IMG/VR virus record: IMGVR_UViG_3300009149_000127
Span: 1 to 35,886 of that record
Source of the DNA: a virus
Taxonomy: Duplodnaviria > Caudoviricetes
Direction: 5' to 3' (one strand)
DNA length: 35,886 nucleotides
Every line of letters begins with the position of its first letter. Positions within the stretch are counted from its first letter, which is position 1. Under the pieces are notes generated by a model, which saw nothing but the letters and a program-made list of their open reading frames with translations, had not been told where the DNA came from and ran no database searches. Made by a program: the position numbers and the translations under genes. This document shows, one piece after another, positions 5,414 through 35,785 of the stretch.

Positions 5414-5428
5414 GAGAACATAATTAAA
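5414..5428 (+). promoter_or_regulatory. Putative phage promoter, class A (GAGAACATAATTAAA)
   Basis: Recurring GAACAWAA+A/T-tract motif, intergenic, just upstream of the RBS of the UDG gene. Confidence 0.6.
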
Positions 5429-16058: not shown

Positions 16059-16487
16059 ATGACATGGTTTATAATTTGTTTTTTATCCGTGATTTTAATT
16101 ATATATACAATTTTTAATAGTCTAAGATGTGTTATGGATTTAAGGATAAAATATACTGAAAACTATGAAAAAATAAACGATATAATAATATATAAAGCAA
16201 CACAAAGTTATGATTTATTTAGGATAAGAGATTTGGCTGTTTATATAAATAATGACACCAGAATGACTCAAGAAGAATTTATATCATATGCGAAATCGTA
16301 TAGGGATTTTTTTAAGTTATTTTGTGGTGATGTAATATATTCGCTTGCTTGTAAAATATATGGCGGAGAAAAACAGCTAAAAATTTATTTGACAATCATT
16401 TTTCACAATTTTATTATAGATGATAAATTGGTAAAAGCATCCGAATCATTATATGAAAAATTGCTCAAAGAGGGGAATAATAAATGA
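16059..16487 (+). CDS. Hypothetical protein with N-terminal transmembrane segment
   Basis: Hydrophobic N-terminus WFIICFLSVILIIYTIF; GAGG upstream; stop overlaps the portal start. Confidence 0.65.
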   Translation: MTWFIICFLSVILIIYTIFNSLRCVMDLRIKYTENYEKINDIIIYKATQSYDLFRIRDLAVYINNDTRMTQEEFISYAKSYRDFFKLFCGDVIYSLACKIYGGEKQLKIYLTIIFHNFIIDDKLVKASESLYEKLLKEGNNK

Positions 16488-18409
16488 ATATTTTTGATAT
16501 GATGTTACAAAGACTACTTGGAGGAGAAGGCGATCCAACAGGACTTGATACTGATGCGGTTATAAATGAAATAGTAAAGGAAAAGCAATTAGGCAGAACC
16601 GATTCTTTTCTACAAGTTATAGGCAAATTGGTTTCGGAAAATAAAAATAAAGATTCTTTTTCTGGTTCTGAAATGTCCGAAGTGGTCAATAAAATGTTCG
16701 GTGGTGCGACAGTAGATTCTTTTAGACAATCTATGGCTGAGCGCATCGGCAGATACAGAGAATATGATGCAATCGTTAGGAAAATACCATATGCTAAAAG
16801 AGCACTTGAGGTAATATCATCAGAGGTGTTGGCCCCGGATAGTATAACGGATTCCAATTTTAATATTAGAAAGAAACGAGAAGTTGTAGACAATGAAAAA
16901 GAAAATGAAGTTAAAAGAAATATTATAGAAATACTAGAGATAACCGAAATGAAGAAAGAATCTAAAAAGTTTGTTAAAACAGCATGTAAGTATGGAGATT
17001 CTTTTATTGAATTGATTGATATGAATAAAGAATTAAAAGAAAAAGGAATTTTAGTAGAATCATTAAATTTGAGTGAAAGTTTTGTTGAAGAGAGTAAAAA
17101 CATTAAGCTCGAAGGTGTTAACATAAATCTTAAAATTTGCTCGTCACCATTTGATAAAATATCTTTATTAATGGAAGATAACTCAGCATCTGGCGGAAAG
17201 TCAACAGTGGGTGATCAGGTTGTTGACAAGGCAAAAATACAAGAAGAAGAGTATGTAGATAAATCAAGTCTTGATGATATATTATTAATCAAACATAACC
17301 CAGGGCTTGTTGTTAGAATCGGTGAGCAGGTTTGCTTCGGATATATAATTTTTCCAAAAGACTTATTGAGCGCACCAAAAATAGAAAATAATATTCTATA
17401 CAAAAGTTCTGGTAATGATAATATGAAAGAATTCTTAAAAAAGATTAAGAATCAATTATCACATAATAAAGAAATAGCATATGAAATTGATAAGAATCGT
17501 GATTTAAAGATCATGCTGACAAAATTATATTTGTTTTATAATGAGATGAATAATATGGGAATGGGCTCAGACGCAGAAATCAGATTTGTACCCCCAGAAT
17601 TAATGTTCCATTTCAAAATAGATTCGGATGATTATGATCCATTTGGTGAATCAATTTTTGCAAATCAGGAATTTGATGCGAAGATAATTGTTCTGTTTAA
17701 AATTTCAATGACATTAATGAGATTGACAAGATCCACAGAAAAGCGTTTGATAGCCTTGGAGATGGGTGTTGAGAAAAGTGTTAGAAACATAATAGAGAGA
17801 TGGAGAGAATTATATGAAAGAAGAAAATATTCCATTGCCGATTCTGGAGGAATAGATTCTGTCCCATCCTTGATAACTACATTCGAAGATATTTTCATTC
17901 CGATGAAAGATGGTAAGAGATTTGTAGAGTTTGATACTATATCTCCGCCAGCTGGATTAGATGCCAAGGTTGATGACTATAAAGTGATGCGCGATTCATT
18001 CATAGCAGGATTAAATGTTCCTCCACCATATCTCAGTGTTGAGGAAAACATAGAGAGTCGTGCAACATTATCACATGAAAATATTATGTTTGCTAAAACG
18101 ATTATAAATCTTCAGAAAGGTTTTGAATCGACTCTTAATAAATTAGTAAAAACCATTTATAGAATCGTCTATCATGAAGATTGTAGTTTTATGGATGTTA
18201 CATTTCCAAGACCAAAAAGTGCTGAATTGACAAGAGAGAGTGAATATTTTAATTCTCTTAAAGATTTCAAGGCAGTTGTTAAGGAATTGGATCTTTCCGA
18301 AGAGAAATTTATTAATAAATATATTGATAGTGATTTGTTAGATAAAACTGAAAGCGATATTGAAAAGGAGATTTCTAATCATGGTGAAGAAGAAGAACCA
18401 GCATTTTAA
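16484..18409 (+). CDS. Portal protein, T4 gp20-like
   Basis: YREYDAI, ALEVISSEV, KYGDSFIE, PFGESIF, EDIFIP..DG, GLNVPPPYL and ATLSHENIMFAKTI..LQ match gp20-family portal motifs. Upstream of the protease and capsid genes. Confidence 0.85.
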   Translation: MNIFDMMLQRLLGGEGDPTGLDTDAVINEIVKEKQLGRTDSFLQVIGKLVSENKNKDSFSGSEMSEVVNKMFGGATVDSFRQSMAERIGRYREYDAIVRKIPYAKRALEVISSEVLAPDSITDSNFNIRKKREVVDNEKENEVKRNIIEILEITEMKKESKKFVKTACKYGDSFIELIDMNKELKEKGILVESLNLSESFVEESKNIKLEGVNINLKICSSPFDKISLLMEDNSASGGKSTVGDQVVDKAKIQEEEYVDKSSLDDILLIKHNPGLVVRIGEQVCFGYIIFPKDLLSAPKIENNILYKSSGNDNMKEFLKKIKNQLSHNKEIAYEIDKNRDLKIMLTKLYLFYNEMNNMGMGSDAEIRFVPPELMFHFKIDSDDYDPFGESIFANQEFDAKIIVLFKISMTLMRLTRSTEKRLIALEMGVEKSVRNIIERWRELYERRKYSIADSGGIDSVPSLITTFEDIFIPMKDGKRFVEFDTISPPAGLDAKVDDYKVMRDSFIAGLNVPPPYLSVEENIESRATLSHENIMFAKTIINLQKGFESTLNKLVKTIYRIVYHEDCSFMDVTFPRPKSAELTRESEYFNSLKDFKAVVKELDLSEEKFINKYIDSDLLDKTESDIEKEISNHGEEEEPAF

Positions 18410-18833
18410 GTTTTTGACCGAGTCTTCCGAATCGAAATGGTTGTCACGACAAATTGTTAATGTTATATTCAATTTCGACAGGGCATTCCAAAGATTTAGG
18501 AGATTTTTCCCAAATTGCGCTTTCAATGATCTGATAAATGATAGAATATCTATAATGCATGAGATCGTGGGAGAGATGCAGGAAAACATGCCCGACATGA
18601 CGATATTGAAAAGATTGTTGGAAAGCATTTTAAAAATCATATGGACAATAGATAAACAAATGGTTAATTATATGAAACAAGAAAGAGAAAAGGAAATAAA
18701 AGAAGAGAAAGAATATAAAGAAGAAATTAAAGATAAAAAAGAAGATCAAGATGATATAAAGAATCAGCAAATTAGTAATAAAGAAGAAGTGATGAAAGAT
18801 ATAAATGAAGATAATATGCGGATGAAGCAATAG
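18381..18833 (+). CDS. Hypothetical head-module protein with charged C-terminus
   Basis: ATG 18381 follows AAGGAG; overlaps the portal 3' end; lies between portal and protease. Confidence 0.65.
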   Translation: MVKKKNQHFKFLTESSESKWLSRQIVNVIFNFDRAFQRFRRFFPNCAFNDLINDRISIMHEIVGEMQENMPDMTILKRLLESILKIIWTIDKQMVNYMKQEREKEIKEEKEYKEEIKDKKEDQDDIKNQQISNKEEVMKDINEDNMRMKQ

Positions 18834-18845
18834 GGAGGATACAAT

Positions 18846-19496
18846 ATGAATCGCTTTTTAATATCAGAAAGTGCCACTTTTGCAAAACGGGCTATAATTG
18901 AAAAGCTTCCAAATAAAGTAATATTCAAAGCAATATTGCAGACGGTAAATGGTAAAAATAGAAATGGAAGAGTATATACAAAAGCTGCGTTACAGGATGC
19001 ACTCAAATTTAAAATGGAAACGTTAGTGAATCCAAGAGGATTCGTTGGTGAATTGGATCATCCAATGATTTCTGATTATAGAGACGAACAAGCTGTTGAA
19101 ATGCGATTATCAACTGTTCTTTGGGATAGATGTTCACATGTTATAACAAAATTTTGGTTTGAGAATAATGAACTCTGGGGGATAGTTGAATCAACATTGT
19201 TTGGAGTTGGTGATCAAATTGTTAAGATAATTAAAGATGACGTGCCACTTGGTTTTTCCCTTAGGGCAATCGGACAGGGAAATAGAATGGGCGATCACAT
19301 ACTAGTTGATCAGATTGATTATTTAGTTTCTTATGATGCTGTTTCAACACCATCACATATGGAAGCACATTTCAAAAGTCTATCAGAAGAAAGATTTTTT
19401 AATATTCAAGAAAGTCTAAAATTCAATCCGGGTATGATTGAAAGTAAAGTAAGTTTTGAAAAAATATTATTCGAAACATTAAATAAATGGGCATAA
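18846..19496 (+). CDS. Prohead core protease, T4 gp21-like
   Basis: NRNGRVY, GELDHP (catalytic His), GFSLRAIG (catalytic Ser region) and YDAVSTPS. Confidence 0.92.
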   Translation: MNRFLISESATFAKRAIIEKLPNKVIFKAILQTVNGKNRNGRVYTKAALQDALKFKMETLVNPRGFVGELDHPMISDYRDEQAVEMRLSTVLWDRCSHVITKFWFENNELWGIVESTLFGVGDQIVKIIKDDVPLGFSLRAIGQGNRMGDHILVDQIDYLVSYDAVSTPSHMEAHFKSLSEERFFNIQESLKFNPGMIESKVSFEKILFETLNKWA

Positions 19497-19514
19497 TTAT
19501 ATTTGGGAGTTATT

Positions 19515-20285
19515 ATGAAAATTAAATTATCAAAAGACAATTTGCATTTTCTAGCAGAGTGTATAAAAATAGAAACAGTGAATGAGTCGATCGGTTTTAT
19601 AGAATCACCACAGATAAAAACAATATTGGAAATGGATGATAAATATATTGTTGAAAAATTCTTGAATGAAATTGCAGGTGCCACAGCAACATTTGGTCCA
19701 ATTATCACAATGATCGGAAACCTCGTTGTAAATAACATTGGAAAACTGGCAACTGGGTTGGTTATTGCGATGACTGCATCGGTTGGTCAAAAAACCGATA
19801 CCATGATAAAATCTAAACAGGGAATGAAGCAAAAGGCTTTAGATGATGCTATGGGTGAATCCTATACATTTAAAGAGGAAGCAGAACCAAACGATACAAA
19901 AGCAGATATTCAGCAAGTTAAAGAAATTAAAAACAACACCATGCAAAACAAATTATCATTCTCTGATCTTATTAAGAAAGGAGAATACAAAAAGGCAATA
20001 CCATATTTAAAAGAAATGATTAGAGATTTGTCAAAAATGCTTAGTTTGAAGGTGAAATATCATGCGGATAAAATAAATATAGATATTCCAAATAATTTTC
20101 TTGCTTCTGTTTCTATGTGGCTTTCTTTGGTAGCAGTTGGTGTTGTAGGTGCTCGACTTTTAATTCCAATTGGAAGAAGGTTCATGAATTTTTTCAGAGG
20201 TAATAATCCTGAAGAAGCAAAAAAATTCGGAGACAAAGCAAAAAAATATTTAGTAAATGTGAAAAAACAATCAGATGCTAAATAA
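19515..20285 (+). CDS. Hypothetical head-associated protein with hydrophobic segments
   Basis: ATG 19515 follows GGGAG. The N-terminus is rich in hydrophobic-X-E sites, and there is a hydrophobic helix SVSMWLSLVAVGVVGARLLI. Confidence 0.65.
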   Translation: MKIKLSKDNLHFLAECIKIETVNESIGFIESPQIKTILEMDDKYIVEKFLNEIAGATATFGPIITMIGNLVVNNIGKLATGLVIAMTASVGQKTDTMIKSKQGMKQKALDDAMGESYTFKEEAEPNDTKADIQQVKEIKNNTMQNKLSFSDLIKKGEYKKAIPYLKEMIRDLSKMLSLKVKYHADKINIDIPNNFLASVSMWLSLVAVGVVGARLLIPIGRRFMNFFRGNNPEEAKKFGDKAKKYLVNVKKQSDAK

Positions 20286-20316
20286 TTAAAAAATGCCTAG
20301 TAAACAAGTGTTTTTC

Positions 20317-20330
20317 GAGAACAAAAAAAT
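20317..20330 (+). promoter_or_regulatory. Putative phage promoter, class A (GAGAACAAAAAAAT)
   Basis: Intergenic motif copy directly before the GGAGG RBS that heads the capsid operon. Confidence 0.55.
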
Positions 20331-20342
20331 GGAGGGCGGAAT

Positions 20343-20624
20343 ATGATTCAATTATACGAACAAAAACAAAATCACAAACAGAATTTAATTGATTCGATGT
20401 TGGAGATTGTGACCCAAGGTTATGGGTCGGAAGGGAAAAGAGTTAATTTTCTTAATGCTAAAATGAAAGAAGCTCTGTCAAAACTAGATGTACTAAGAAA
20501 GAAATTAAAAATAACAGTGAGTCAAGAAAAATTTTTAACAGGAAAGCTTATTAAATCGGAAGAAACGATTGCGAAAAATCTTTCTAAACTTAAAAAGTTA
20601 ATTAAAGAGGTTGATAATGATTAA
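20343..20624 (+). CDS. Small coiled-coil protein
   Basis: 93 aa with GGAGG RBS and a heptad-like Lys/Leu pattern. Confidence 0.7.
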   Translation: MIQLYEQKQNHKQNLIDSMLEIVTQGYGSEGKRVNFLNAKMKEALSKLDVLRKKLKITVSQEKFLTGKLIKSEETIAKNLSKLKKLIKEVDND

Positions 20625-21027
20625 GATCATTGGATCTGAAAAAAGTGATTATCCTGCTGGTAGGTTAGCAGAGATTAGGAATAAGTTTGGTTTTTACCTA
20701 AAGCCTTTTATTGAAAGAGAGAATGAAGATAAAAGAAAGAATTATTTAGGCATATTGGATAAAACTAAGAATATTCTAAAACAGCTCAATGAAAGAATGA
20801 TAAAATTAAAAAATTTGAATTATGAATATAACAAGATGCAGCTAAGTGAAAAGATAGTCAAAAATTTAATATTCATTACAGAAAAAAGATTTTTATCACC
20901 ACAGCTTAGGGCTGATATAAAGACAATTATGAAAAAATTAAAAATTATGTCTTTAAAAGAATTAGAAAAACAGAACGAAATAGTAGAAACAGTTAAGTCA
21001 AAAATATTGGAAAATATTAGGAGGTAA
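20617..21027 (+). CDS. Basic helical hypothetical protein
   Basis: ATG 20617 follows GAGG and overlaps the previous gene; immediately upstream of the capsid gene. Confidence 0.7.
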   Translation: MIKIIGSEKSDYPAGRLAEIRNKFGFYLKPFIERENEDKRKNYLGILDKTKNILKQLNERMIKLKNLNYEYNKMQLSEKIVKNLIFITEKRFLSPQLRADIKTIMKKLKIMSLKELEKQNEIVETVKSKILENIRR

Positions 21028-21032
21028 CCCCT

Positions 21033-22526
21033 ATGAAGAAGAACGCAAGTTTTGTAACTAAAGACCTTCTGATCGAAAGCTTCAGAAGCGTAAAGAAAAA
21101 TTTTAGCATCGATCTACAGAATCCACTTCAAAATCTGAATGTCCTTGCCAACACAAAGGCATTCGATTATTATATTGAATCACTGTGTGAACCATTTGTT
21201 GATGCACACGACAGAATCAATATTAAAACTATGGCCAAAGGCACAAGGCAGACATTGCTCATGGAAAACGCAAAAGGATCACTCTCACATTATGAAGTGC
21301 TCTCTCTTCCATTGATACCGATTTTCTACCCTAGGCTCATTGCCAAGGATCTTGTAACTTTTGCAACAACAGACAAACCAGAAATCATCAAACCAGTGAT
21401 GAGAGCCAAATTCAACAGATGGAATGATCCGGCTGACTACGCAGCACCTTCCATGGATACAGATATTTCTAGAGGTCCGACTCTTGGAGTTCCTGGTGGA
21501 TTTGTATGTGCAATTCCGGGCTCAACAGATCTTTTAGATGCAGCAGGTGGTCTAACACCAGCATCAGCACATATCGAAAGGGATCTTAAGATTCTCGAGA
21601 TTACTGATGGCGCAAACGTTGCTGTAGTTGAACAAATTACAACCGTTGATGGTAACTTCTATATCCCAGTAACTCTTGGCGCAGCCACAGATGTTATTAC
21701 GGGTAAAGTAGATTTCCAGAATGGTATGATTACATTCAGCTCAGTGAATGGCGTGGCAACACAAGCCAAGGTTGAGGCAACAGTTTCAATCGAAGAAAAT
21801 ACAGTTTCTTCAAAACTGGAAATTGAAATTGACAAGATCAGAATTCCTATCGTCGATAGGCAGATTGAAGTCTCTTACACTATCCAACAGAAGATGGATG
21901 TTAAATCGCTGTATGATATTGAGCTCGAATCAATCATTCTCGATCTGATTGGATCACAGATTGCTCTTGATCTGGATAGTTTTATCCTTAAGTCACTAAC
22001 CGGTGTTGTTTATAAACCATCCTTGGTCCCAGCATCACATATTCAGTCTTTCAGGAAAAATCCTCCTGCTGGTTATGATTGGGGTCCAAAGAGCTGGCAC
22101 GAGAATATCGTGACAAACATCAACGAAATCGCAGCACAAATTTCTATCGACACTAGACTTGGTGAAGCCAATGTCATCGCTTCAAATACACTGAATGCTG
22201 CTCTGCTTCGCGATCTTAACACCTATAGGGTTGATTATGACCGCCAGGGTAAATCAGTAATCGGTTATAAAGCTGCTGAAATTGAAGGCGGAAATATGTC
22301 CGTGATCGATAGCCCTGTTCAGGAACTGAACAAAATGTTACTGGTTTATAAACCAGGACCGAATGAAGAACATAAATCAGTTTACTACCTGATTATGCAT
22401 ACACCTGGATTGGTTATTCCGTATCCTAAGGGCTACAAACCATCCTTCAGTGTGTTTACAAGGTATGGTACTGCTTTCATTCATCACAAAGGTTTGGGCG
22501 TGCTCGAAATAGACCCATCCGCGTAA
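21033..22526 (+). CDS. Major capsid protein (HK97 fold, T4 gp23-like)
   Basis: LPLIPIFYPRLIAKDLV, RQIEVSYTIQQKMDVKSLYDIELESIILDLIGSQIALDLD..IL and FTRYG resemble gp23-family motifs. AGGAGGT RBS, visibly higher GC than flanking genes, and a strong terminator downstream. Confidence 0.82.
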   Translation: MKKNASFVTKDLLIESFRSVKKNFSIDLQNPLQNLNVLANTKAFDYYIESLCEPFVDAHDRINIKTMAKGTRQTLLMENAKGSLSHYEVLSLPLIPIFYPRLIAKDLVTFATTDKPEIIKPVMRAKFNRWNDPADYAAPSMDTDISRGPTLGVPGGFVCAIPGSTDLLDAAGGLTPASAHIERDLKILEITDGANVAVVEQITTVDGNFYIPVTLGAATDVITGKVDFQNGMITFSSVNGVATQAKVEATVSIEENTVSSKLEIEIDKIRIPIVDRQIEVSYTIQQKMDVKSLYDIELESIILDLIGSQIALDLDSFILKSLTGVVYKPSLVPASHIQSFRKNPPAGYDWGPKSWHENIVTNINEIAAQISIDTRLGEANVIASNTLNAALLRDLNTYRVDYDRQGKSVIGYKAAEIEGGNMSVIDSPVQELNKMLLVYKPGPNEEHKSVYYLIMHTPGLVIPYPKGYKPSFSVFTRYGTAFIHHKGLGVLEIDPSA

Positions 22527-22572
22527 TACAAGCCCTCCTGTTTGATACAGGTTTGATAAAACATACATTTTT

Positions 22573-22609
22573 AGACACCTTGGAATTTTTTCCAAGGTGT
22601 CTTTTTTTT
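22573..22609 (+). terminator. Intrinsic terminator after the capsid gene
   Basis: Perfect 13-bp stem AGACACCTTGGAA / TTCCAAGGTGTCT with a 4-nt loop, then a T tract. Confidence 0.92.
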
Positions 22610-22675
22610 GTTTTTATTATGCCAAAAATAACGATTAAAAATAATAGTTCTCCTTTTTGTTTTTTTGTTTGAAAT

Positions 22676-22688
22676 GAAGTACATATAT
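22676..22688 (+). promoter_or_regulatory. Putative phage promoter, class B (GAAGTACATATAT)
   Basis: The same GAANTACATATAT 13-mer, with an upstream T tract, precedes the two minus-strand islands. Confidence 0.6.
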
Positions 22689-22723
22689 TCTAACAAAGAA
22701 AACTTTTTCGTGGAGGACTTCGA

Positions 22724-24142
22724 ATGAAACTTAATCACATCAAGGACAAGACTGGAAGGTTTGGGGAATTCGTGTTTGCTGATAAATCTAAATGGAAATT
22801 TAATATTAAAAATGCTTCAATGCGAAACTCATATGAAGAAATATTTGATTTCATCAGAGGATCGGCACTCTTGATTCCCAGATACAATGATTTTATGAAA
22901 AGCATGACAACTTATTTTGATACTTCGGATTGGGACAATTTTTTCAAAACATTAGAAGAGATTCGCGAATTATCAAAAGAAAGATTGAAAATAATGGATT
23001 TAGATATTTCAAGTTATTGCAACCCAGCAAAGAAAACTTCAAAGTCATTATATATAGATAAAGAAATGATGGAAGATCTTTTAGAAACAATAATATCTTT
23101 AAAATTAATATCTCCTTTTATTTTTGATAAGAATAATTTTTCGGAATATTGGTATAAAAAATTCATGTATACCGTAACTGGAAAATTATATGATACTGGT
23201 TTTGTTGATATTCTCTATAAATTAATAAGACAGATATCTTTTAAGTTTTCTTTATCTGATAAAAATCTTTGGAATTTAGTTTCCATTAAATATGGATATC
23301 AAAATGTTGGATACTCTTTAATGATGTTCAATTGCTTTATGCATCAATTTTTAGTAACATATGATTTTGGAGCAAAAAAGAATCCAATGACTTTTATTGT
23401 TTCTATTATAAATGAAAGTTTCACATGGCTAATCAGAACAAATATAAACTCTACAATAATTAATGACAGCAATGAAAATTATTTCGAACAATATTTAATG
23501 TCCCTAGATATAGATAAAATGATAATGAATGAATCCATGTTTAATAATCATATCCTTTTTGGTTTGAAATATTTATTTGATAAAGAAACTGTTGATAAGA
23601 TGATTTTAAGATCAACAGAATCAACTGTTTCCCCTATAATGTATACGATTGGAAATCTATTAACTTCAAAAATTACAGGAATTTCTACAAGTTTTTTAAA
23701 TGAGAGAAAAACACATTATATTATTCTCAATAATATTTTTATTTCACAATTAATATCCAAGTTATATCCAAACGATCCTTTCTTCCAAAAACTCGCACTG
23801 CTATTAAGAGTAGTTAAGAATAAGAAAAATAATCTTAGCAAAAATATTAGAAAGAAAACCATTAAAAAACATTATAAAACAATAATGGAAAAAGATGTGA
23901 GTTTCTATGGAATTAAAGATAAAAGTATAATAATCAACATATTGAATTATATCATTGAAGATTTGAGACTTCCAAGCGTTTATGATGTTGTTAAAGGATC
24001 AGTCGTAACAATACCTGAAGATTGGGTGGAAATAATATTAGATACATTAATTAAATTATTTGATGAGAAGAATGATGAATTTGATAAAATAAGGAAATTT
24101 TTCTTATCCATGGTTTCCATGGAACGAAATCTGGATGTTTAA
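22724..24142 (+). CDS. Hypothetical 472-aa helical protein (candidate RNAP promoter-specificity subunit)
   Basis: GGAGG RBS; first gene after the capsid terminator and upstream of the RNAP genes. The CDS is clear, but the function is inferred only from context and size. Confidence 0.7.
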   Translation: MKLNHIKDKTGRFGEFVFADKSKWKFNIKNASMRNSYEEIFDFIRGSALLIPRYNDFMKSMTTYFDTSDWDNFFKTLEEIRELSKERLKIMDLDISSYCNPAKKTSKSLYIDKEMMEDLLETIISLKLISPFIFDKNNFSEYWYKKFMYTVTGKLYDTGFVDILYKLIRQISFKFSLSDKNLWNLVSIKYGYQNVGYSLMMFNCFMHQFLVTYDFGAKKNPMTFIVSIINESFTWLIRTNINSTIINDSNENYFEQYLMSLDIDKMIMNESMFNNHILFGLKYLFDKETVDKMILRSTESTVSPIMYTIGNLLTSKITGISTSFLNERKTHYIILNNIFISQLISKLYPNDPFFQKLALLLRVVKNKKNNLSKNIRKKTIKKHYKTIMEKDVSFYGIKDKSIIINILNYIIEDLRLPSVYDVVKGSVVTIPEDWVEIILDTLIKLFDEKNDEFDKIRKFFLSMVSMERNLDV

Positions 24143-24154
24143 AGGAGGGAGTAT

Positions 24155-24433
24155 ATGAGTGAATTTGACAACATTATTAAAAATGTTTTATACATTCCCG
24201 GAATTGTTTGCATTGAAGACCATTCTGAAAGTATAACTTTAAAGAAATATCTAAGAGAATATTTTGACACAGATAAAACTAAATATGTTATTCAGCCCCC
24301 TAGGATAGTTAATAAAGAAGATGTTATGAAAGGATTAATAAATCCCAAGATTGTGTTTGGGGTAGATGAAGATCTGCATGAATCTAAACACAATATACTA
24401 GAAGGATTTTTGGAATATGAAGAACAAAAATAA
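24155..24433 (+). CDS. Small hypothetical protein upstream of RNAP beta'
   Basis: 92 aa with AAGGAGG RBS. Confidence 0.7.
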   Translation: MSEFDNIIKNVLYIPGIVCIEDHSESITLKKYLREYFDTDKTKYVIQPPRIVNKEDVMKGLINPKIVFGVDEDLHESKHNILEGFLEYEEQK

Positions 24434-24434
24434 A
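24420..24434 (+). promoter_or_regulatory. Putative phage promoter, class A (AAGAACAAAAATAAA)
   Basis: Motif copy overlapping the stop of the 92-aa ORF, just upstream of the beta' RBS. Confidence 0.55.
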
Positions 24435-24457
24435 TATGAACAGAGGAGTTGCGACTC

Positions 24458-27400
24458 ATGGCTGAACAAACAAAATTAAATTTAATGGATTTAGAAAGCT
24501 TCTGCGCTCATCTTCCAATAGTCAACGACTCGAAGATTTTTAAAAGTGAAAAACTACAGCAGTTTTCTGATATGGGTCTGTTTAGTCCAATTATTTTTGG
24601 AATGAAAGGGAGTGAGAAGTTTAGGTCTGCCTATGCTTGTATAGATTTGAGGGTTAAAGTATTCAATCCTGTTGTATATTCTATCTTAACAAGATTGGAT
24701 AAGAAAATAGATAGGATAGTGAATGAAGATTTAGGCTTTAATGTTTTGGATGATGGTTCTATTGAGCTATCAGAAAAAGACGCATCACATTATGGGATCA
24801 TCGGTTTGATAGAATCATTTAATTCCCTGCGTTTCCGCGCAGATACACACGATAGAAAAATATTTGTGGAAATAATAAATAATAGTAGGAAGAAAGTATT
24901 CACATCCAAAATACCGATCATACCTCCTGAGAAACGACCAATATATCCGAACAGACAGACCGGGGAATTTATGCCGGACGAACTTAATGAACATTATATA
25001 AAGGTTATTAAGATATGTAGATCAATTCCATCCAATCTGGATGGTTTTGATGAACTGACAAGATCTACGTTCGTTTCTAAGATACAATTGGCATATAATA
25101 CATTATATGAGTTTGTTAAATTGAAGCTTGGAAAGAAGGCAGGATATTATAGATCTAATCTTTTGGGAAAAAGAGTGGACCACAGTGGGCGTGGAGTAAT
25201 TGTCGGAGATCCAAATATACCCCCGAATAAAATTGGAATTACCATGAGAATTGCCGTCAGGATATTTGAACCATTCATTCTACATAACTTGTTACAACAG
25301 GAAAAAGAGTATTATGATTTATTTTCAGAAATGTATCCAAAGGAAGATTACATTGAAAAGTGTAAAAAGATTCTAAAAGATATAAGTCAGAGTATGATCA
25401 AAGTTGAACATCCGATATATACCGAAATTAAGAAGATTACTATTCGTGTTTCTAAAGATAGGGTTGTTTGTGCAAAACGTGATCCGGCTTTGCAGCGTGA
25501 TAGTTGGAGGGCATTCGAACCGATAATAGTTGATGGAAATATCATACGTATAAATCATGCCAGTTGTGAAGGATTTGGTGCAGACTTTGATGGCGATACA
25601 ATGGCAATATATTCTTTAATGACAGATGAAGCCACTGAAGAAGCCAGAAGATTGATGATGACAATGGAATCTCATAAAGGAATGAATCAGCCAACTCTCG
25701 ATCTTAAAAAAGATATTTTTCAGGGAATATACATTATGACACGTGATTATCCAATCAAAGAAACGTATACTGGCAGCATCATAGATGTAGATAATATGTT
25801 GAAAAATATAGAAAAAGGAATAGAGATAAAAGGAACTGTGATGACAGTTGGCAAATATTTATTTAATAGTGCATTTAAAGAATATGCTGATGACAAAGGA
25901 TATATTTTAGAAACAGTAACTAGCAAATCATTCAGCAAATTAATCAGAAAACTTCTAGCATATTATAAAGAAAAATTACATGAAGTCATACAAAGATTAC
26001 AAGAAATGGCATATAAAATTATTACAATATATCCAAGAAGTATTATACTTGATGATCTCCTGATAGCAGAAGATAAAGAAATTATTAAATTGAGGGAAAT
26101 ATTTAAAAAGACTGATGATCTAATAGAAAAAACAAACTTAGTAAGTCAAATGGGGGCAGTGATATTAGATAGATTGAAGAAGACGGATTCGGCTTTATAT
26201 GATTCTATTATATCCGGTGCATCGGGTAAGATGTCACAGATAACTCAGATGTTGGGTGTTAAAGGTTTGATATCTGATGCGAACAATAACTTGACAATTT
26301 CTATATCATCATCATTTGTTGATGGACTCAAACCATCTGAATATTTTGAGTCTGGTAGTGGAGCGAGAAAAGGTCTTGCTGATAGAACGCTGAAGACAGC
26401 AGACACTGGATATCTAACAAGAAAGCTTGTTTATGCACTTAGTTGTTGTAAATTGTCTGAAGATATTCATGATTGTAAAACAACAAGAACATTCAATATA
26501 CCAAATGATTCGGATATAGCTGGAAGAGTTGTGGGACGAAATGTATTGGAAGGTGATACACTTATTGAGTTAACGCCTGCCAATGTAAATAAATTTAAAA
26601 TTTTGAAATTGAGATCACCTATATTTTGTAAGTCGAGAGAAATATGTCACACGTGTTATGGGAAACTTAGAGAAATAATTAAGACCCGCAACATTGGGGT
26701 ATTGTCAGGCGAATCAGTAGGAGAACGTGGAACCCAGCTTGTTATGAGGACATTCCATACTGGTGGTATTGTATCTGTTCAAATATTTGATGTTATAGAT
26801 GCATTTTTGAAAAATCAAACATGGTTGGATAAATCGGAGTTGTCAAAGTGGCTCATTCAAAATCAACAAAACCTTATTTCAGTACAGCCAATTAAAATAG
26901 AAATTTTATTAGACACAATTCAAAAAAGCTCCATTTATGAAACACAAGAAGGGAATTTAATTATTCCAAGTTTGGCAATGGTTATAATACATCCAACTAA
27001 AGGAAGAATACTTCTCGAGGCTGATACTGGTGTAACATTGTTGAAAGATTATTTTGTCTTTGTGGATAAACATAAAATAGTGATGGAAACTAAACCAAAC
27101 ACGCCATTTATGATTATTGCAGATCAGGATGATAACTTCTCATTAATTATAGATCAGTTAGTTTCATACCTAGATAAAAAGGAAAGTGTCAGAAATATTC
27201 TCTCAGTATTCAATAGAATATGGGAAAAATATAAAGATGTTTCTACTTTAGATCTGGTCCATGTCGAAGTGCTATTATCACAAATTCTCAGAGATAAAGA
27301 TAATAATAGACTATTGGCAAGATTGACAAAAGAATGGAATCCATATAAAGTTGGAGTAAAATCTATACCATATTTAGATAACTGGAAACTGGGTCTTATG

Positions 27401-27508
27401 TTTGAAGATGTTCAGAATGCTGTACAGCAGGCTTTAATAACCTCCCATTATCAAGATACCGAGGGAGTTGTTCAAATGGATAGTTCCATATTAGAAATGT
27501 TGTATTAA
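24458..27508 (+). CDS. rpoC: DNA-directed RNA polymerase beta'-like subunit (phage-encoded)
   Basis: LLGKRVDHSGRGVI, KRDPAL, catalytic ADFDGD, bridge helix RKGLADRTLKTADTGYLTRKLV, RSPIFC...ICHTCYG, trigger loop GERGTQLVMRTFHTGG and HVEVLLSQ. ATG 24458 follows GAGGAG. Confidence 0.95.
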   Translation: MAEQTKLNLMDLESFCAHLPIVNDSKIFKSEKLQQFSDMGLFSPIIFGMKGSEKFRSAYACIDLRVKVFNPVVYSILTRLDKKIDRIVNEDLGFNVLDDGSIELSEKDASHYGIIGLIESFNSLRFRADTHDRKIFVEIINNSRKKVFTSKIPIIPPEKRPIYPNRQTGEFMPDELNEHYIKVIKICRSIPSNLDGFDELTRSTFVSKIQLAYNTLYEFVKLKLGKKAGYYRSNLLGKRVDHSGRGVIVGDPNIPPNKIGITMRIAVRIFEPFILHNLLQQEKEYYDLFSEMYPKEDYIEKCKKILKDISQSMIKVEHPIYTEIKKITIRVSKDRVVCAKRDPALQRDSWRAFEPIIVDGNIIRINHASCEGFGADFDGDTMAIYSLMTDEATEEARRLMMTMESHKGMNQPTLDLKKDIFQGIYIMTRDYPIKETYTGSIIDVDNMLKNIEKGIEIKGTVMTVGKYLFNSAFKEYADDKGYILETVTSKSFSKLIRKLLAYYKEKLHEVIQRLQEMAYKIITIYPRSIILDDLLIAEDKEIIKLREIFKKTDDLIEKTNLVSQMGAVILDRLKKTDSALYDSIISGASGKMSQITQMLGVKGLISDANNNLTISISSSFVDGLKPSEYFESGSGARKGLADRTLKTADTGYLTRKLVYALSCCKLSEDIHDCKTTRTFNIPNDSDIAGRVVGRNVLEGDTLIELTPANVNKFKILKLRSPIFCKSREICHTCYGKLREIIKTRNIGVLSGESVGERGTQLVMRTFHTGGIVSVQIFDVIDAFLKNQTWLDKSELSKWLIQNQQNLISVQPIKIEILLDTIQKSSIYETQEGNLIIPSLAMVIIHPTKGRILLEADTGVTLLKDYFVFVDKHKIVMETKPNTPFMIIADQDDNFSLIIDQLVSYLDKKESVRNILSVFNRIWEKYKDVSTLDLVHVEVLLSQILRDKDNNRLLARLTKEWNPYKVGVKSIPYLDNWKLGLMFEDVQNAVQQALITSHYQDTEGVVQMDSSILEMLY

Positions 27509-27517
27509 GGAGATAAG

Positions 27518-30500
27518 ATGTCTGAAAAATTAGTATTGCAAGAAGCCAAACGTCCTAGTCAGTTTATGTTGTTTACGACTGCTGACAAACGACTTTTCAT
27601 AACAGCCAAAGATAAAGTTGCGTTGGTTTATTTTTCAGAAAACAATAAACCATTATTAGATCTTTATCCAAAAATGAATATACCTATTGCTTATATACGT
27701 AATATTTTAATTCCGAGATTTATTTATAAATTTATTAGAATGGTTCCTAAGGGGAGTCAATTACAAGCAATAAGAATAGCATATAAACTGATGCCATTCA
27801 TGAAAGAAGATAAAATTCTGGATGTGGGTAGGCCGTTTTATTTTGACTTCAACCCCTTGATAAGTACTATACATAATAAATTTACAAACTTGAGACAGAA
27901 CGTGCCATTTGTAATGTTGTCAAACATTTTAAATAATTATATAAAAGAATTCAATGCAAAAGGTTATAAGACGATTGTGATGTATCATGTAAATACAAGA
28001 CAGGCGTTTGATAAAAATATATTCAAAAGGAAAATATTTCCATTTCTCAAACAAATACAGCTTGGTTCTAATTATTTTGATGAAATGTTTTTACTGAATG
28101 AAAATTTGGATTCTGTTACGTATCGTTTATTATATAGAAAGAATGATGAAAGATTTAGTATGTCTAAACTTTTTTCATTCTTAAAGATAATGAAATTTGA
28201 TGTTCCTGAAAATACATCAGAGGAAATGACAAAAGAACTTCCCGATGAAAAAGATTCTGAGATTACACCAACCACAGATAATGTTGTTGTGACTCCACCA
28301 TCTGTATCAGAAACTGATGGAAATATGTTAAAAAATAATAAAAAATTCAGAGAAGAGAAAGATACAATAGATGACGAATCAATTAAGGAAGTCGTGCGAT
28401 CAAATATAACAAGTGGAAAAACCAAGGAATTACAAAAAGAAATAAAAACAGATGATGATATTGCTGTAGAATTGCTCAAACACACATTAAACACCCCAGA
28501 AGAAATTGCTAAGAAAGCTGTGACGAAGCATGGTCCGAAAGCAGTTATTGAAAAAACAAAAGAATTTATGCTCCCATCTTTTGATATACAGAATAGATCG
28601 AAACATCCTTTGACAAAGAATGTAGATTTAAAAAAGATACACAATAACCAACTTCTCAATAATGTTATGGTAAAAAGAATAAATGAGGTAACGCAGCTAC
28701 AGGATGAGTATGTTGAGGAAATATTGGGTTCATATAAAGATAAAGATATTCCAGTTAAACTACTTGGGGTGACAAAAGAGATTGTCCAGAGTAGTTCAAC
28801 AGAAATATTTAAAAGTGTGTTCATACAATATAATGCCAAAATGAAATTAGCAAATGGACAGATACAAAATATTAGATTCAAGGTTCCGGCTATTATAGAA
28901 AATAATTATATCTATATTAATGGAATGAAAAAAGTTTTAATAAATCAATTAATAGCAAATCCAATTTACTTCCCAAAACCATATTTAGCATATGTGCATT
29001 CTATATATGCTACAATAAGATTGGAATATAAAGCTTTTAAAGAACCATATTTTAGTTTATTTTGTTCTGGTTTGAAGATGCCATTTATGATTGGTTTTTT
29101 GGCCGCATTCGGAGAGGAAGGTTTATATTCGTCATTTGGAATAAAAATCGTAAGAGGTGATGTCGTAGATCAGGATAAAATTTCCGTAAAATTAAAAACT
29201 AAAGATTCTAAGATATCCGTAGTTTTTGAAAATAAAGAATGGGAAATTCTGAAAAATGACTTTATTAGAGTTGCAAAATATACAATAAAGTTCATGGATG
29301 GGAAATATATTTGGAATAATGTAATTTCTGCGATGACCGGGAGCAAAAATGCCAAATATAATGTACAAACAGTTCATGCTAATATTATTGATAAACAGAC
29401 AAAAGAAATTCTTTTATCTAATAATGAACCAACAAATATAATTGATATTTATAAATTTATTATACCTAAATTGATGGAGGGATATTTTCAGGCTAGAAAT
29501 GATATAAGCAAGATGAGAGTTAGGAGTACTGAAATTATTCCTATGGCTATAAAACAGGTTTTTGATTTGGCATATTCTCGTTATAATGGTGAAACTAAAC
29601 TTAGAAATAAAGCTGTCAAGCTCGAAATAGATCAAAATAGAATTATGTCTGATATATTAACATCCGCATTGACACAGACTGCTGAGTATGTCAATCCACT
29701 GGAACAAATTTCCACGATCACCCGTGTCACATATCGTGGTGTTGGTGGCATAGATGCAAAAGCAGAATTGCTAGAAATGCGCGGTGTCCATCCGGAATAT
29801 TTTGGAAACATAGATCCAATAGATACACCACAATCATCTGCAATTGGCATGGTTCAGAATTTAACGAATGGTGCAAACTTCAGGACTAAATATGGGCATC
29901 TTGTTTCTAAAAAAATAGATGATAATCTTAAAACTGGAATGCTTAGCCCAACCACATCATTGATACCATTTATTGAAAACAATGAACCGACTAGAATGAT
30001 CATGGCATCCAACCAAATGAAGCAATCGCTTCCAATTATATACAATGAAGTTCCTGCTGTTCAAACTGGTTATGAATCTTTTATAGCAAATTATTGTTCA
30101 GGAGAATTTATAGTTACGGCAGAAGGTTCGGGAAAGGTTATAGAAGTTTCAGATAATAAGATAAAGATACAATATAAAACAGGTGAAATAGATGAGGTGG
30201 ATGTTGGAAGAGTTGTTTTGAGAAGTGGTCAGAGTTATCATAGCATTAGTGAATTGAAATCTGAAGTTCAGACTGGTGATGTTGTGAAAGCTGGACAGGT
30301 ATTAGCATCGAACCATTTATTTAAGAATGGTCAGTTGGCACTTGGAAGAAATCTACTATGTGCGTTTATGCAATGGAAGGGTGCCAATTTCGAAGACGGA
30401 ATAATAATACGAAAAGGGCTGGCCGAAGAACAAGCATTGACCAGCAGGCATTCAATGGTATATGAAATATTTCTTTCCCAGAAGGATGAGCTCATTGATT

Positions 30501-31666
30501 ATAATATTGAAATGGATGGAAAGATAGATGATAGACATATTCTTGTAGAATTTGTACCAGAAAATATTGTTCCACTATTGGGCGAAATGGACGAATATGG
30601 CGATTTGGATATAACTACAGAGAAAACAATAACCTTGAAATCCACTAAAGGAATCATATATTCTGTTGAAGTTTTTTGCAACCATAAATCACTCAATCCG
30701 ACAATGACAAAGTTGGTTAATAAATTTGGGAATCCAAAGCGAGTCGGGCAATATACTATTCGTGGTGAGAAAATTGATGGTACAATGATTAAGGTATATG
30801 TTGAAACAGAAAAAGATATAAAAGACGGTGATAAACTTTCTAATAGATATGGTAACAAAGGTGTTATAACTTTAATGGAAGATGATGATAAGATGCCTGT
30901 AACTCCATGGGGTGATAAAATTGATATTATTTTAAATCCTTTTGGAATCTATGGGCGTATTAACATGGGTCAGGTGTTCGAACTTTACTGTGGTCTAATT
31001 TCTAAAAGAATAGCTGATGAGTCCAGGAATTTAACCAAGATTGCATTCACCAAATTGATGGTGAGAATTATGACACAGTTGGACAATACTGCTGACAAAA
31101 AAATAAAGAAGGAAGTTATAAATTCACTTATGAAGATGTCTGAGAAAGACTTTCAGGTATTGAGAAATGAGAAGTTCTTTCCAATAATTGTACCTCCATT
31201 TGATGCACCTAAAACTAAACACATTATGGAAGTTATAAAAATATTAGGATTAAAAACTAAATATAAACTACATCTTCCTGAATATAATATGAAAACGAAA
31301 GATGGAGTTCCAGTTGGTTATATGTTTATTCAGAAATTGGAACATATGGCAGAGAAGAAACTTTCCGTTAGATCGGTTGGTGCATATTCACAAAAAACTA
31401 AACAACCATCAGCGGCCTCCAAGGAAAGAGGTCAGATGGTTGGAGAAATGGATAGTTGGGTATTATCAGCGTATGGAGCGGAAAAGATCATAAAAGAATT
31501 ATTTGGCCCTGCGAGTGATGATATGGCTCTTAAAAGAAAAATGATGACTGACATTTTGATGAATGGCCATGCCAATCTTCCAGATCAAAGAAAAATAAAC
31601 CCAGCACTAGAATTGACCGAAGATTATATGATAATAATTGGTTTGGAAGAAACTAGTGTTTTATAA
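27518..31666 (+). CDS. rpoB: DNA-directed RNA polymerase beta-like subunit with long N-terminal extension (phage-encoded)
   Basis: YINGMKKV, RGVHPEYFGNIDPIDTP, LIPFIEN..PTRMIMASNQMKQ, NFEDG, GDKLSNRYGNKGVI, DIILNPFG..GRINMGQ, QKLEH...K...RS.G.YS..TKQP and GQMVGEMD. Confidence 0.95.
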   Translation: MSEKLVLQEAKRPSQFMLFTTADKRLFITAKDKVALVYFSENNKPLLDLYPKMNIPIAYIRNILIPRFIYKFIRMVPKGSQLQAIRIAYKLMPFMKEDKILDVGRPFYFDFNPLISTIHNKFTNLRQNVPFVMLSNILNNYIKEFNAKGYKTIVMYHVNTRQAFDKNIFKRKIFPFLKQIQLGSNYFDEMFLLNENLDSVTYRLLYRKNDERFSMSKLFSFLKIMKFDVPENTSEEMTKELPDEKDSEITPTTDNVVVTPPSVSETDGNMLKNNKKFREEKDTIDDESIKEVVRSNITSGKTKELQKEIKTDDDIAVELLKHTLNTPEEIAKKAVTKHGPKAVIEKTKEFMLPSFDIQNRSKHPLTKNVDLKKIHNNQLLNNVMVKRINEVTQLQDEYVEEILGSYKDKDIPVKLLGVTKEIVQSSSTEIFKSVFIQYNAKMKLANGQIQNIRFKVPAIIENNYIYINGMKKVLINQLIANPIYFPKPYLAYVHSIYATIRLEYKAFKEPYFSLFCSGLKMPFMIGFLAAFGEEGLYSSFGIKIVRGDVVDQDKISVKLKTKDSKISVVFENKEWEILKNDFIRVAKYTIKFMDGKYIWNNVISAMTGSKNAKYNVQTVHANIIDKQTKEILLSNNEPTNIIDIYKFIIPKLMEGYFQARNDISKMRVRSTEIIPMAIKQVFDLAYSRYNGETKLRNKAVKLEIDQNRIMSDILTSALTQTAEYVNPLEQISTITRVTYRGVGGIDAKAELLEMRGVHPEYFGNIDPIDTPQSSAIGMVQNLTNGANFRTKYGHLVSKKIDDNLKTGMLSPTTSLIPFIENNEPTRMIMASNQMKQSLPIIYNEVPAVQTGYESFIANYCSGEFIVTAEGSGKVIEVSDNKIKIQYKTGEIDEVDVGRVVLRSGQSYHSISELKSEVQTGDVVKAGQVLASNHLFKNGQLALGRNLLCAFMQWKGANFEDGIIIRKGLAEEQALTSRHSMVYEIFLSQKDELIDYNIEMDGKIDDRHILVEFVPENIVPLLGEMDEYGDLDITTEKTITLKSTKGIIYSVEVFCNHKSLNPTMTKLVNKFGNPKRVGQYTIRGEKIDGTMIKVYVETEKDIKDGDKLSNRYGNKGVITLMEDDDKMPVTPWGDKIDIILNPFGIYGRINMGQVFELYCGLISKRIADESRNLTKIAFTKLMVRIMTQLDNTADKKIKKEVINSLMKMSEKDFQVLRNEKFFPIIVPPFDAPKTKHIMEVIKILGLKTKYKLHLPEYNMKTKDGVPVGYMFIQKLEHMAEKKLSVRSVGAYSQKTKQPSAASKERGQMVGEMDSWVLSAYGAEKIIKELFGPASDDMALKRKMMTDILMNGHANLPDQRKINPALELTEDYMIIIGLEETSVL

Positions 31667-31677
31667 TTTTAACGACA

Positions 31678-31709
31678 AAAAAATGGGTGAAATTAATCAC
31701 CCATTTTTT
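31678..31709. terminator. Bidirectional intrinsic terminator
   Basis: AAAAAATGGGTGA / TCACCCATTTTTT inverted repeat between the convergent beta gene and the 83-aa ORF. Confidence 0.88.
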
Positions 31710-31725
31710 ATTTTAGTAAATCCTT

Positions 31726-31977
31726 TTAGACGAATATTTTTTTGATAGCGTTTGTCATTTTTATCAAAATTATATCCTTCATTCCGCATTCGCAGATTTG
31801 TTCTATTAAAGCATAAAGTCCCCCATCACTGAATTCCCCATTTTCTTCCCTCACATTCATTCTTACGCTCGGCACTGCCGATCTCCCCAATTTTAAAATT
31901 TTATTGCATTTCTTGCAATTAGTATTGCCTAAAAATATACTCAATGCGGCATACTGCTGTTTGGTTAAACAATACAT
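31726..31977 (-). CDS. Small putative zinc-ribbon protein
   Basis: CKKC ... CECG; RBS GAGGTGA on the minus strand at 31981-31987. Confidence 0.65.
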   Translation of the reverse strand: MYCLTKQQYAALSIFLGNTNCKKCNKILKLGRSAVPSVRMNVREENGEFSDGGLYALIEQICECGMKDIILIKMTNAIKKIFV

Positions 31978-32288
31978 TGTTCACCTCAATAATTTTAGTA
32001 TGACCTCTCTCAATGGTGTTTCTCAATAGAATTTCTTTTTTTTAATTTAAAATTTTGTTTGAATTCCTTAAACCGTTAACTTTCTTTTTTTTAAATTATT
32101 TTCGAAATATGGATATTGGATTTTTGTAGTTAGATTATTTCTATTTGACTAGTACGAAGAATAATATCCCGAGATATCCATAAAGCTAGTTATTGCGTTA
32201 TATACGCCTCCTTGATAATATTATTTTGTTATTTATGTGTCCAAGCTTTTGTTAATACAATAACTAAAGCATAATTTTTTTATCCCCG

Positions 32289-32310
32289 AAAAAAGGGGCC
32301 GTGCCCCTTT
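32289..32310 (-). terminator. Intrinsic terminator (minus strand)
   Basis: The minus strand reads AAAGGGGC-ACG-GCCCCTTTTTT just after the stop at 32317. Confidence 0.8.
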
Positions 32311-32316
32311 AAAACG

Positions 32317-32793: not shown

Positions 32794-32794
32794 G

Positions 32795-33076
32795 TTACCC
32801 TCCTTCGTATTCTGTTCTGGCCAGTTTGTATACAGTTTTTCTGACCCTTGCTCTGCATTTGTCCATTGGCACTGTGTGCCATTTTTCAATGAGCCCATTC
32901 CATTTTCCATCAGCTGTCTCACCAAATAGAAAATTTCCAAACCATTCTTTGAATCTCCTGCCTGTTTGTTTTGTCCTCCTCCAAGGACCGGGAAATTGAT
33001 TGTTAAATTTTCTCATTCCTACATAGCCCCAGAAAAAGCATCCGATTTTACTGCCAGCTATGAACCATGTAAACAT
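32795..33076 (-). CDS. Hypothetical protein (93 aa, Trp/Gly/basic-rich)
   Basis: Start MFTWF follows GGGAGGT at 33081-33087 (minus strand); its stop abuts the next start. Confidence 0.65.
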   Translation of the reverse strand: MFTWFIAGSKIGCFFWGYVGMRKFNNQFPGPWRRTKQTGRRFKEWFGNFLFGETADGKWNGLIEKWHTVPMDKCRARVRKTVYKLARTEYEGG

Positions 33077-35722: not shown

Positions 35723-35772
35723 AATAACACCCCCATAATTTTATCTTTACATTATCTCTCATTCACCTATTT

Positions 35773-35785
35773 ATATATGTAGTTC
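35773..35785 (-). promoter_or_regulatory. Putative phage promoter, class B (GAACTACATATAT)
   Basis: Motif on the minus strand, ~50 nt upstream of the 82-aa ORF start. Confidence 0.6.

Follow-up and report, generated by a model that had tools for sequence, protein, structure and literature searches.

The phages AR9 and phiKZ have two-polymerase systems, in which a virion RNA polymerase (vRNAP) and a non-virion RNA polymerase (nvRNAP) are accompanied by a sigma-like factor, gp226 in AR9 and gp68 in phiKZ (PMC7598289, PMC5312081, PMC9209446). In both phages the factor is part of the non-virion enzyme (PMC9209446, PMC7598289); the AR9 gene g226 has early promoters and is expressed continuously, and in phiKZ the genes of the virion enzyme are transcribed by the non-virion enzyme (PMC5312081). 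A group of uncultured giant phages has been described as the multi-subunit RNA polymerase (RNAP)-encoding Caudovirales, or mReC (Weinheimer and Aylward, 2020; PMC7481178). Here we describe a locus in a stretch of 35,886 nucleotides from a tailed virus (IMG/VR record IMGVR_UViG_3300009149_000127; hereafter the window), where genes for an unsplit beta' and an unsplit beta subunit follow an open reading frame (ORF) of 472 codons, ORF472. We consider it likely, with a probability of roughly 0.7, that the pair is an unsplit virion RNAP of an AR9/phiKZ-type two-polymerase system and that ORF472 partners a second, non-virion core, presumably encoded beyond the ends of the fragment. The window is the whole of a linear virus assembly (record G000) with an estimated completeness of 12%, which implies a full genome of about 300 kb; a contig of 116,852 bases with the same ORF472 and beta' has also been recorded.

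The polymerase genes and their lineage

The beta' gene occupies positions 24458..27508 on the plus strand and encodes 1016 aa from its ATG, the frame being open already from a TTG at 24449; it matches the Pfam domains Rpb1_2, Rpb1_4 and Rpb1_5 and carries the catalytic motif GADFDGD at exactly 25577-25597. The beta gene follows at 27518..31666 on the same strand (1382 aa; Rpb2_3, Rpb2_6 and Rpb2_7), with the lysine-bearing motifs GDKLSNRYGNKG at residue 1104 and KLEH at residue 1273. The first-pass annotation of this DNA had thus correctly recognized two single polypeptides with full catalytic motifs, in the order beta' then beta, as well as the compact size of beta' and the position of its motif. 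It had also presented this gene order as the reverse of the bacterial one; the order is indeed present but not unusual, being common to the cultured phages GN1 and Carin-5.

The locus had been offered as the best candidate for an undescribed system; its lineage is already known, the window being a fragment of a jumbo phage of the mReC lineage. Both subunits exceed the 800 aa required of each for mReC, the polymerase stands apart from those of cells and of nucleocytoplasmic large DNA viruses (NCLDV) and together with published mReC sequences, and the capsid belongs to PF07068. Record L208, in which ORF472 is 100% identical at the same offset, is among the 97 contigs of the table in PMC7481178, and the related record G004 (L007) is a published mReC contig found in Datasets 1 and 2 of that paper. 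The stated mReC screening filter, NADxDGD, does not fit the GADFDGD of the window, yet L208 is listed in the table; the filter says more about how contigs were selected than about their biology, since G and N vary among close relatives. Among the 15 best beta' matches, the window's own included, the first position of the motif is G in six, N in seven and S in one, the remaining match being a fragment without the motif; in P0006, which is 84% identical, it is N. Some lower-ranking matches of bacterial type likewise begin the motif with G, for example P0021, P0036, P0086 and P0089. GADFDGD was therefore rejected as a lineage marker, and the distinguishing role given to it by the earlier annotation falls away.

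Two beta'-beta sets are present in five related records (G002, G003, G004, G005 and G007), including both of the clade records that are at least 80% complete. Set 1, the type found in the window, comprises a beta' of about 1005 aa and a beta of about 1370 aa with the sigma-like gene upstream; set 2 comprises a beta' of about 900 aa and a beta of about 1020 aa, with no sigma-like neighbour at the loci examined. In the mReC supplement, Dataset 2 lists the G004 contig twice, with subunits of 1005/1367 and 900/1014 aa (PMC7481178). A single set was seen in G000, G001, G012, G018, G019 and G020, all of which are 9-38% complete; G018 is the closest relative of the window, with an ORF472 counterpart that is 76% identical. 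In all eight records with both genes (the window, G002, L003, G003, G004, L005, L015 and G018) the sigma-like gene lies at most two ORFs upstream of the set 1 beta'. A search for a second set or an alpha subunit, as the first-pass annotation had advised, therefore gave a second set in five relatives but not in the window, and no alpha subunit domain in any of the five relatives, with 14 of 14 controls positive.

Tree placement

The loci and the AR9 and phiKZ pieces were aligned to beta' and beta profiles, and separate FastTree trees were built for beta' (70 taxa by 818 columns, with 15 bacteria) and beta (51 by 816, with 14 bacteria). In the beta' and beta trees, respectively, set 1 groups with the AR9/phiKZ virion enzymes with Shimodaira-Hasegawa (SH)-like support of 0.98 and 0.97, and set 2 groups with the non-virion enzymes with 0.95 and 0.90; in the beta' tree the window stands apart from archaea, eukaryotes and NCLDV. 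A concatenated maximum-likelihood (ML) tree was computed in IQ-TREE from 31 taxa and 1634 columns under LG+F+G4, which is not a site-heterogeneous model. It unites set 2, G005_B and the non-virion enzymes (99.5/99), and set 1, the virion enzymes and G005_A (87.7/86), G005_A and G005_B being the two enzymes of G005. The window and G004 set 1 form a clade (99.4/93), and the virion and non-virion groups together are separated from GN1, Carin-5, fused-type phages and Bacteria with 99.8/100.

Constrained searches agree with this pairing: a grouping of set 1 with the non-virion enzymes is rejected (p 0.001), as is a clade of the four split enzymes (p 0.0014), and five of six hand-built alternative trees are rejected. 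Reciprocal profile comparisons agree with the pairing of set 1 with virion and set 2 with non-virion enzymes in seven of eight cases. The proposed deep-branching phage origin is likewise upheld, since grouping the window with Bacteria, of which six were in the tree, is rejected with an approximately unbiased (AU) test p of 5e-78. We thus regard the window pair, with moderate support, as orthologous to the virion RNAP formed by gp145, gp264 and gp189 in AR9 and by gp180, gp80, gp178 and gp149 in phiKZ. Made of two polypeptides and not of at least five, it would work like a phiKZ-type vRNAP but would not be filed as one.

Two features of the polypeptides bear on this assignment independently of the trees. 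The N-terminal zinc ribbon of beta' is absent from the window and the rest of set 1, from AR9 gp145 and from phiKZ gp180, and present in set 2 and phiKZ gp55; the zinc ribbon is named for nvRNAPs in PMC7824862. The window beta has an N-terminal extension of about 430 aa, with a folded domain at residues 20-230 and an acidic linker at 229-306. When residues 1-460 were modelled (predicted local distance difference test, pLDDT, 65), the best viral match was a 921-aa PBS1 protein (E 1e-10), by its length gene 80, which is 99% identical to the first exon of the AR9 virion beta gp189. Judged by this model, the extension resembles the N-termini of virion beta subunits in its fold. For the beta subunit of phage 201phi2-1, cleavage at residue 275 has been reported (PMC5694885). 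A P-loop kinase was considered for residues 20-230 and rejected, the Z scores of up to 8.0 being in the chance range and the alignment holding no Walker A motif.

ORF472, a predicted sigma-like subunit

ORF472 (22724..24142, plus strand) has no Pfam or PHROG match when searched alone, and an ESM Atlas search returned nothing usable. It has three close homologs, and profile searching extends the family to 80 clusters, mostly of 430-550 aa. A profile of 78 sequences, consisting of the four close ones and the longer matches after five short matches had been excluded, finds a single distinct match among Protein Data Bank (PDB) sequences at E up to 10, namely AR9 gp226, end to end and with E 1.4e-7. 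Against the ORF472 profile gp226 scores 34.0 bits, with a high bias term, and the best of 2000 shuffles scores -8.8. Five of the 78 family members match phrog_25005, annotated as RNA polymerase.

The predicted structure (pLDDT 87.6) points the same way. In a Foldseek search with the model, the matches below 0.001 were 7s01_A (2e-5), 8que_B (5e-5) and 7um0_A and no others, and superposition on 7s01_A (VIA) gave a Z of 19.7 over 403 aligned residues with a root-mean-square deviation (rmsd) of 16.0, which probably reflects domain movement. Residues 105-245 resemble bacterial sigma2 domains (Z 5-7.2), and residues 257-450 align with the phiKZ chain 7ogp_B (Z 8.6, rmsd 4.4, 168 aligned). We infer that the phiKZ chains among these matches are gp68, because their numbering runs up to 521, the length of PHIKZ068. 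ORF472 thus has full-length homology to the gp226/gp68 type and its layout, with a sigma2-like region in the N-terminal domain, a finger and a C-terminal domain of its own, and is predicted to be a promoter-specificity subunit of this type. The accessory factor claimed for the window by the earlier annotation is in this respect borne out.

In AR9 gp226, Y246 and S245 hold the non-template strand (PMC9209446). In the profile alignment, at about 15% identity, S245 corresponds to T223 and Y246 to F224 of ORF472, and F or Y occupies the latter position in 77 of the 78 family rows. The uracil-selecting V206 corresponds in the same alignment to N181, so that uracil dependence of ORF472 is not expected.

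The profile does not detect phiKZ gp68 by sequence, and the blanks for the family in 16 of 21 genomes are therefore weak. The same limit applies to the profile searches of the GN1, Carin-5 and TM30 genomes and of six genomes with fusion-type polymerases, none of which gave a match; a tblastn search of cultured phages with the family member P0130 was also negative.

Promoter-like motifs

The two candidate promoter classes proposed for the window were recovered as repeated motifs. Class B, of early type, occurs as TACATATATT at 22680..22689 (plus strand), 44 nt upstream of ORF472, at 35772..35781 (minus) upstream of small minus-strand ORFs, at 33223-33232 (minus) and, within a gene, at 1020-1029 (plus). 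Class A, of late or middle type, occurs as AGAACAAAAATAAA at 24421..24434 (plus), 36 nt upstream of beta', at 5415..5428 (plus) and at 13937, 33292 and 34757, with looser sites near 11271, 20319 and 35814. The class A pattern AGAACAWAAWWAAA has five matches in the window against 0.04 expected and the class B pattern TACATATATW four against 0.59, odds that are flattered by both patterns having been drawn from the window itself. In G003 both motifs emerge unprompted as the top upstream-enriched 8-mers. There, intergenic DNA makes up 8.5% of the sequence but holds 29 of the 56 class A hits and 65 of the 124 loose class B hits.

Among the 291 called genes of G003, 25 have a class A motif, 29 a class B motif and one has both; the class A genes are mostly on the plus strand (22/25), the class B genes mostly on the minus strand (24/29). 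Head or tail proteins make up 12 of the 34 proteins scanned from class A operons and none of the 22 from class B operons, the proteins having been chosen by hand. A motif related to class B lies upstream of the sigma gene in six of nine loci, the window included (not in G003, G018 or G004, where the start call of the sigma gene may be too far upstream), and a motif related to class A lies upstream of the set 1 beta' or of the small ORF preceding it in seven of nine, again with the window (not in G004 or L015). In G002 and L003 a terminator-like hairpin stands between the class B site with its sigma gene and the class A site with set 1. The G003 class B consensus, CTATATATATTAAT-nnn-TG from 21 sites, is close to the AR9 early consensus AAATATATATTAT-6N-G; the late consensus of AR9 is AACA-6N-TA/G (PMC5312081). 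A scan of positions 20000-35886 for sigma-70-type promoters found 94 against 80 +/- 9 expected, which is no signal.

A possible mode of action and its alternatives

By analogy with AR9, late transcription from the class A site at 24421 would supply the set 1 pair, which would be incorporated into the heads and later injected. Once inside the cell, this core, working without alpha or sigma, might read class B promoters of the TACATATAT type, including the one before ORF472, and so lead to the synthesis of ORF472 and presumably of set 2. Bound to that second core, ORF472 would direct it to the class A (AGAACA-type) promoters that front the genes for DNA polymerase, head, tail and the virion polymerase. 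The packaging, the timing, the assignment of enzymes to motifs, the partner of ORF472 and the presence of a second set in the window phage are all carried over from AR9 and phiKZ.

Several observations weigh against an unsplit virion RNAP with ORF472 serving an absent second core. In the concatenated tree the split-type phages are AR9 and phiKZ alone, the phiKZ beta' rows are 46-50% covered and the phiKZ non-virion beta is absent; leaving out G005_A, set 1 and the virion enzymes are joined with moderate support (64.3/80), and, of the hand-built trees, the one that places the virion enzymes outside both sets survives the test (p 0.058). The AR9 non-virion gp270, like the virion subunits, lacks the zinc ribbon, and a sequence profile of the beta extension does not detect AR9 gp189 (no better than shuffles) or phiKZ gp178. 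No second set was seen in the window at its 12% completeness, in G001 (18%) or in G018 (119 kb, 38%). As for the motifs, class A has the AACA core of AR9 late promoters but no fixed TA/G six bases on, it also precedes the DNA polymerase, and it recurs within set 2 operons (G004, G007 and L016), while class B upstream of G003 set 2 is represented by one weak match. Finally, the gaps from ORF472 to ORF92 and from ORF92 to beta' in the window are 12 and 24 nt, with no terminator found there, so that transcription begun at the class B site could run on into the RNAP genes.

This tight spacing is part of what speaks for a self-contained holoenzyme, as the first-pass annotation had it, in which ORF472 binds the adjacent beta'-beta pair, with either a single core that recognizes class B by itself and class A when ORF472 is bound, or two cores whose roles are swapped relative to AR9. 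The sigma-like gene stands near the set 1 beta' in eight of eight records, no set 2 locus examined has it as a neighbour, a gene annotated as sigma directly precedes the beta'-beta pair of Carin-5, and a second set was not seen in G000, G001, G018, G019 or G020. Those five records are, however, incomplete to the degree given above, relatives do carry a second set, and the window pair falls with the virion type, its union with the non-virion enzymes being rejected; a class A site, joined in G002 and L003 by a hairpin, separates the sigma gene from set 1, and the factor serves the non-virion enzyme in AR9 and phiKZ (PMC9209446, PMC7598289). We therefore think a self-contained enzyme unlikely. 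A narrower version, to which we give rather less credence, would be that the window sublineage has one virion-type core only, which alone would read TACATATAT promoters after injection and with ORF472 would read AGAACA promoters; it is suggested by the lack of a second set in G000, G001 and G018 together with the constant place of the sigma gene beside set 1. As part of the same improbable proposal, this single-core, three-gene state would resemble that from before the virion/non-virion duplication or one reached after loss of the second enzyme.

The trees could also mislead. If the mReC duplication were separate from that of AR9 and phiKZ, the pairing would be a long-branch artefact and the roles of the sets could not be read from it; the AR9 and phiKZ branches measure 1.1-2.0 substitutions per site, long-branch attraction for these enzymes was noted in a 2020 review (PMC7598289), and G005_A shifts between trees. 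But long-branch attraction would be expected to unite the four split enzymes, which the data reject, and the lost zinc ribbon, the extended N-terminus of beta and the positions of the promoter-like motifs agree with the pairing without recourse to a tree, so that a separate duplication seems doubtful to us. As to a recent capture of bacterial rpoBC or a chimeric assembly, the best solved-structure matches of the window beta' and beta by sequence are indeed bacterial subunits. Against a capture, the best bacterial matches are about 30% identical and part-length, neither the rpoB-rpoC order nor the beta' zinc ribbon is present, the forced bacterial grouping fails, and the phylogeny that the first-pass annotation had called for returns a Bacteria clade (100/100) from which the window is excluded. 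Against a chimera, the gene order recurs in G001 and G018 and the composition of the RNAP genes resembles that of the rest of the window. We give such an origin next to no weight, and an unsplit virion RNAP belonging to a two-polymerase system is the reading we retain.

Whether the virion and non-virion enzymes arose by duplication or by two captures has been called untraceable or unknown in reviews (PMC7598289, PMC13282480), and one analysis takes the split subunits for the original state rather than the outcome of gene fission (PMC7824862). The existence of whole-gene sisters of each enzyme, together with whole-gene outgroups, favours one duplication followed by separate fissions, and the partly split G005 and the ORFs inserted in the beta' genes of G018, G003 and L003 look like fission steps. 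According to the 2020 review, no virion polymerase had been purified and promoter reading without sigma was unexplained (PMC7598289); a two-gene virion-type enzyme with a candidate promoter is directly expressible and testable.

Gene structure in relatives

In G018 (L206 11785-17335) a 647-aa ORF, probably part of an intron that carries a homing endonuclease, splits the beta' gene a few residues past NADFDGD; ORFs of 295-333 aa lie inside the C-terminal part of beta' in G003 and L003, and the beta of G007 consists of two overlapping ORFs. G005 (L006, L199; 357 kb, 100% complete) has two partly split polymerases and a distant gene of the ORF472 family; one enzyme groups with the non-virion clade and the other shifts in position close to the virion clade, which makes this phage a possible intermediate. 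In G003 (L190 8673-13307) the set 2 genes come after a conserved operon for a JAB-domain protein, two ThiF/E1-like proteins and a Rho_N protein with a weakly ThiS-like C-terminus. The operon and set 2 block also occur in G002, G004, G007, G012, L008, L009, L016 and L017, and the operon, next to this non-virion-type enzyme, may encode a ubiquitin-like conjugation system. Single beta-beta' fusions of about 2000-2500 aa are found on a separate branch in many viral contigs (L012-L014, L018, L020-L025, L027-L030, L033, L035, L037-L039, L042 and L050).

Other genes of the window

Upstream of ORF472 lies a head module (16484..22526, plus strand; PF07230, PF03420 and PF07068) with a portal of the Portal_T4 family (16484-18409), an S77 prohead protease (18846-19496) and a Gp23-type capsid protein (21033-22526; PF07068, E 1.2e-19), all on the plus strand. 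The capsid operon is closed by a terminator-like hairpin at 22573..22602 (plus), with a 13-pair stem and a T run, and another terminator-like hairpin lies 3' of beta at 31678..31709 (plus). No ribosomal-protein genes were found among the 37 window ORFs scanned, and Pfam and PHROG scans of the fragment found no terminase gene, including the large subunit (VOG01069/PF03237). The T4-like head neighbours emphasized at first are thus real, but the same genes also match AR9 counterparts (portal E 8e-21, capsid 2e-8, protease 5e-9), and homologs of the T4 portal, capsid and protease have been reported for phiKZ relatives (PMC5694885). Record G001 (L001) has the same genes in the same order at 98-100% identity, so the join between head and RNAP genes is not peculiar to the window assembly; in G002, G003 and L003 the sigma/RNAP block comes after baseplate genes instead. 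ORF92 (24155..24433, plus; 92 aa), between ORF472 and beta', has no Pfam or PHROG match and did not match a profile of five small ORFs at the same place in relatives.

Elsewhere in the window, a 427-aa acidic, repetitive ORF at 14012-15295, near the head module and with a class A site upstream, is a candidate scaffold or internal head protein. A single 873-aa family B DNA polymerase (11303-13924; best PHROG phrog_262) matches both halves of the split AR9 polymerase (gp132 and gp152). Positions 5446-8887 encode in succession a protein of the uracil-DNA glycosylase (UDG) family, a QueE-like radical S-adenosylmethionine (SAM) protein (phrog_2076, 6e-27) and a weakly tRNA-guanine-transglycosylase-like ORF (phrog_887, 3e-4), possibly a 7-deazaguanine DNA-modification or queuosine module. 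A stand-alone LigD 3'-phosphoesterase domain (3805-4263), a C92 papain-like amidase (10615-11283) and a 65-aa ORF of the histone H1-like Hc1 family (34502-34699; PF07432, 5.5e-14) were also found.

Comparison with known systems

With mReC the window shares unsplit beta and beta' subunits outside the cellular clades and a PF07068 capsid. The main text of PMC7481178 contains no occurrence of sigma, virion, AR9, phiKZ or "two copies", and the sigma-like factor, the two-set layout, its mapping to virion and non-virion enzymes and the promoters are not discussed there, though both G004 sets are in Dataset 2. In the literature available, mostly non-subscription and largely in the form of listings and abstracts, we found no description for mReC of the sigma-like factor, of two sets mapped to virion and non-virion enzymes or of the promoters.

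Cultured phages with one annotated beta'-beta pair include Yersinia phage GN1 (YerA41-like), Cobetia phage Carin-5 and Rhizobium phage TM30. GN1 and Carin-5 have, as the window does, a whole beta' followed by a whole beta, and in Carin-5 the sigma-annotated gene directly upstream encodes 196 aa. These phages differ in forming a separate long branch outside the two-set clade, and the Carin-5 beta' retains the zinc ribbon, unlike that of the window.

The first-pass annotation had set the locus against phiKZ-like phages, which in fact contain the closest cultured relatives of the system. Differences do exist: the AR9 and phiKZ cores consist of four or five polypeptides each and that of the window of two, the RNAP genes are clustered, the family B DNA polymerase of the window is in one piece, and the uracil-selecting V206 of gp226 faces N181 in ORF472. 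A single-sequence search with phiKZ gp54, which we take to be chimallin, gave no match in G003, G004 or G005, nor in AR9. What the window and its relatives have in common with AR9/PBS1 and phiKZ is the plan of the system: two paralogous cores without alpha (seen in the relatives of the window), one gp226-type factor, and an AT-rich early-type motif alongside an AACA-containing late-type motif, which lie mostly on opposite strands in G003.

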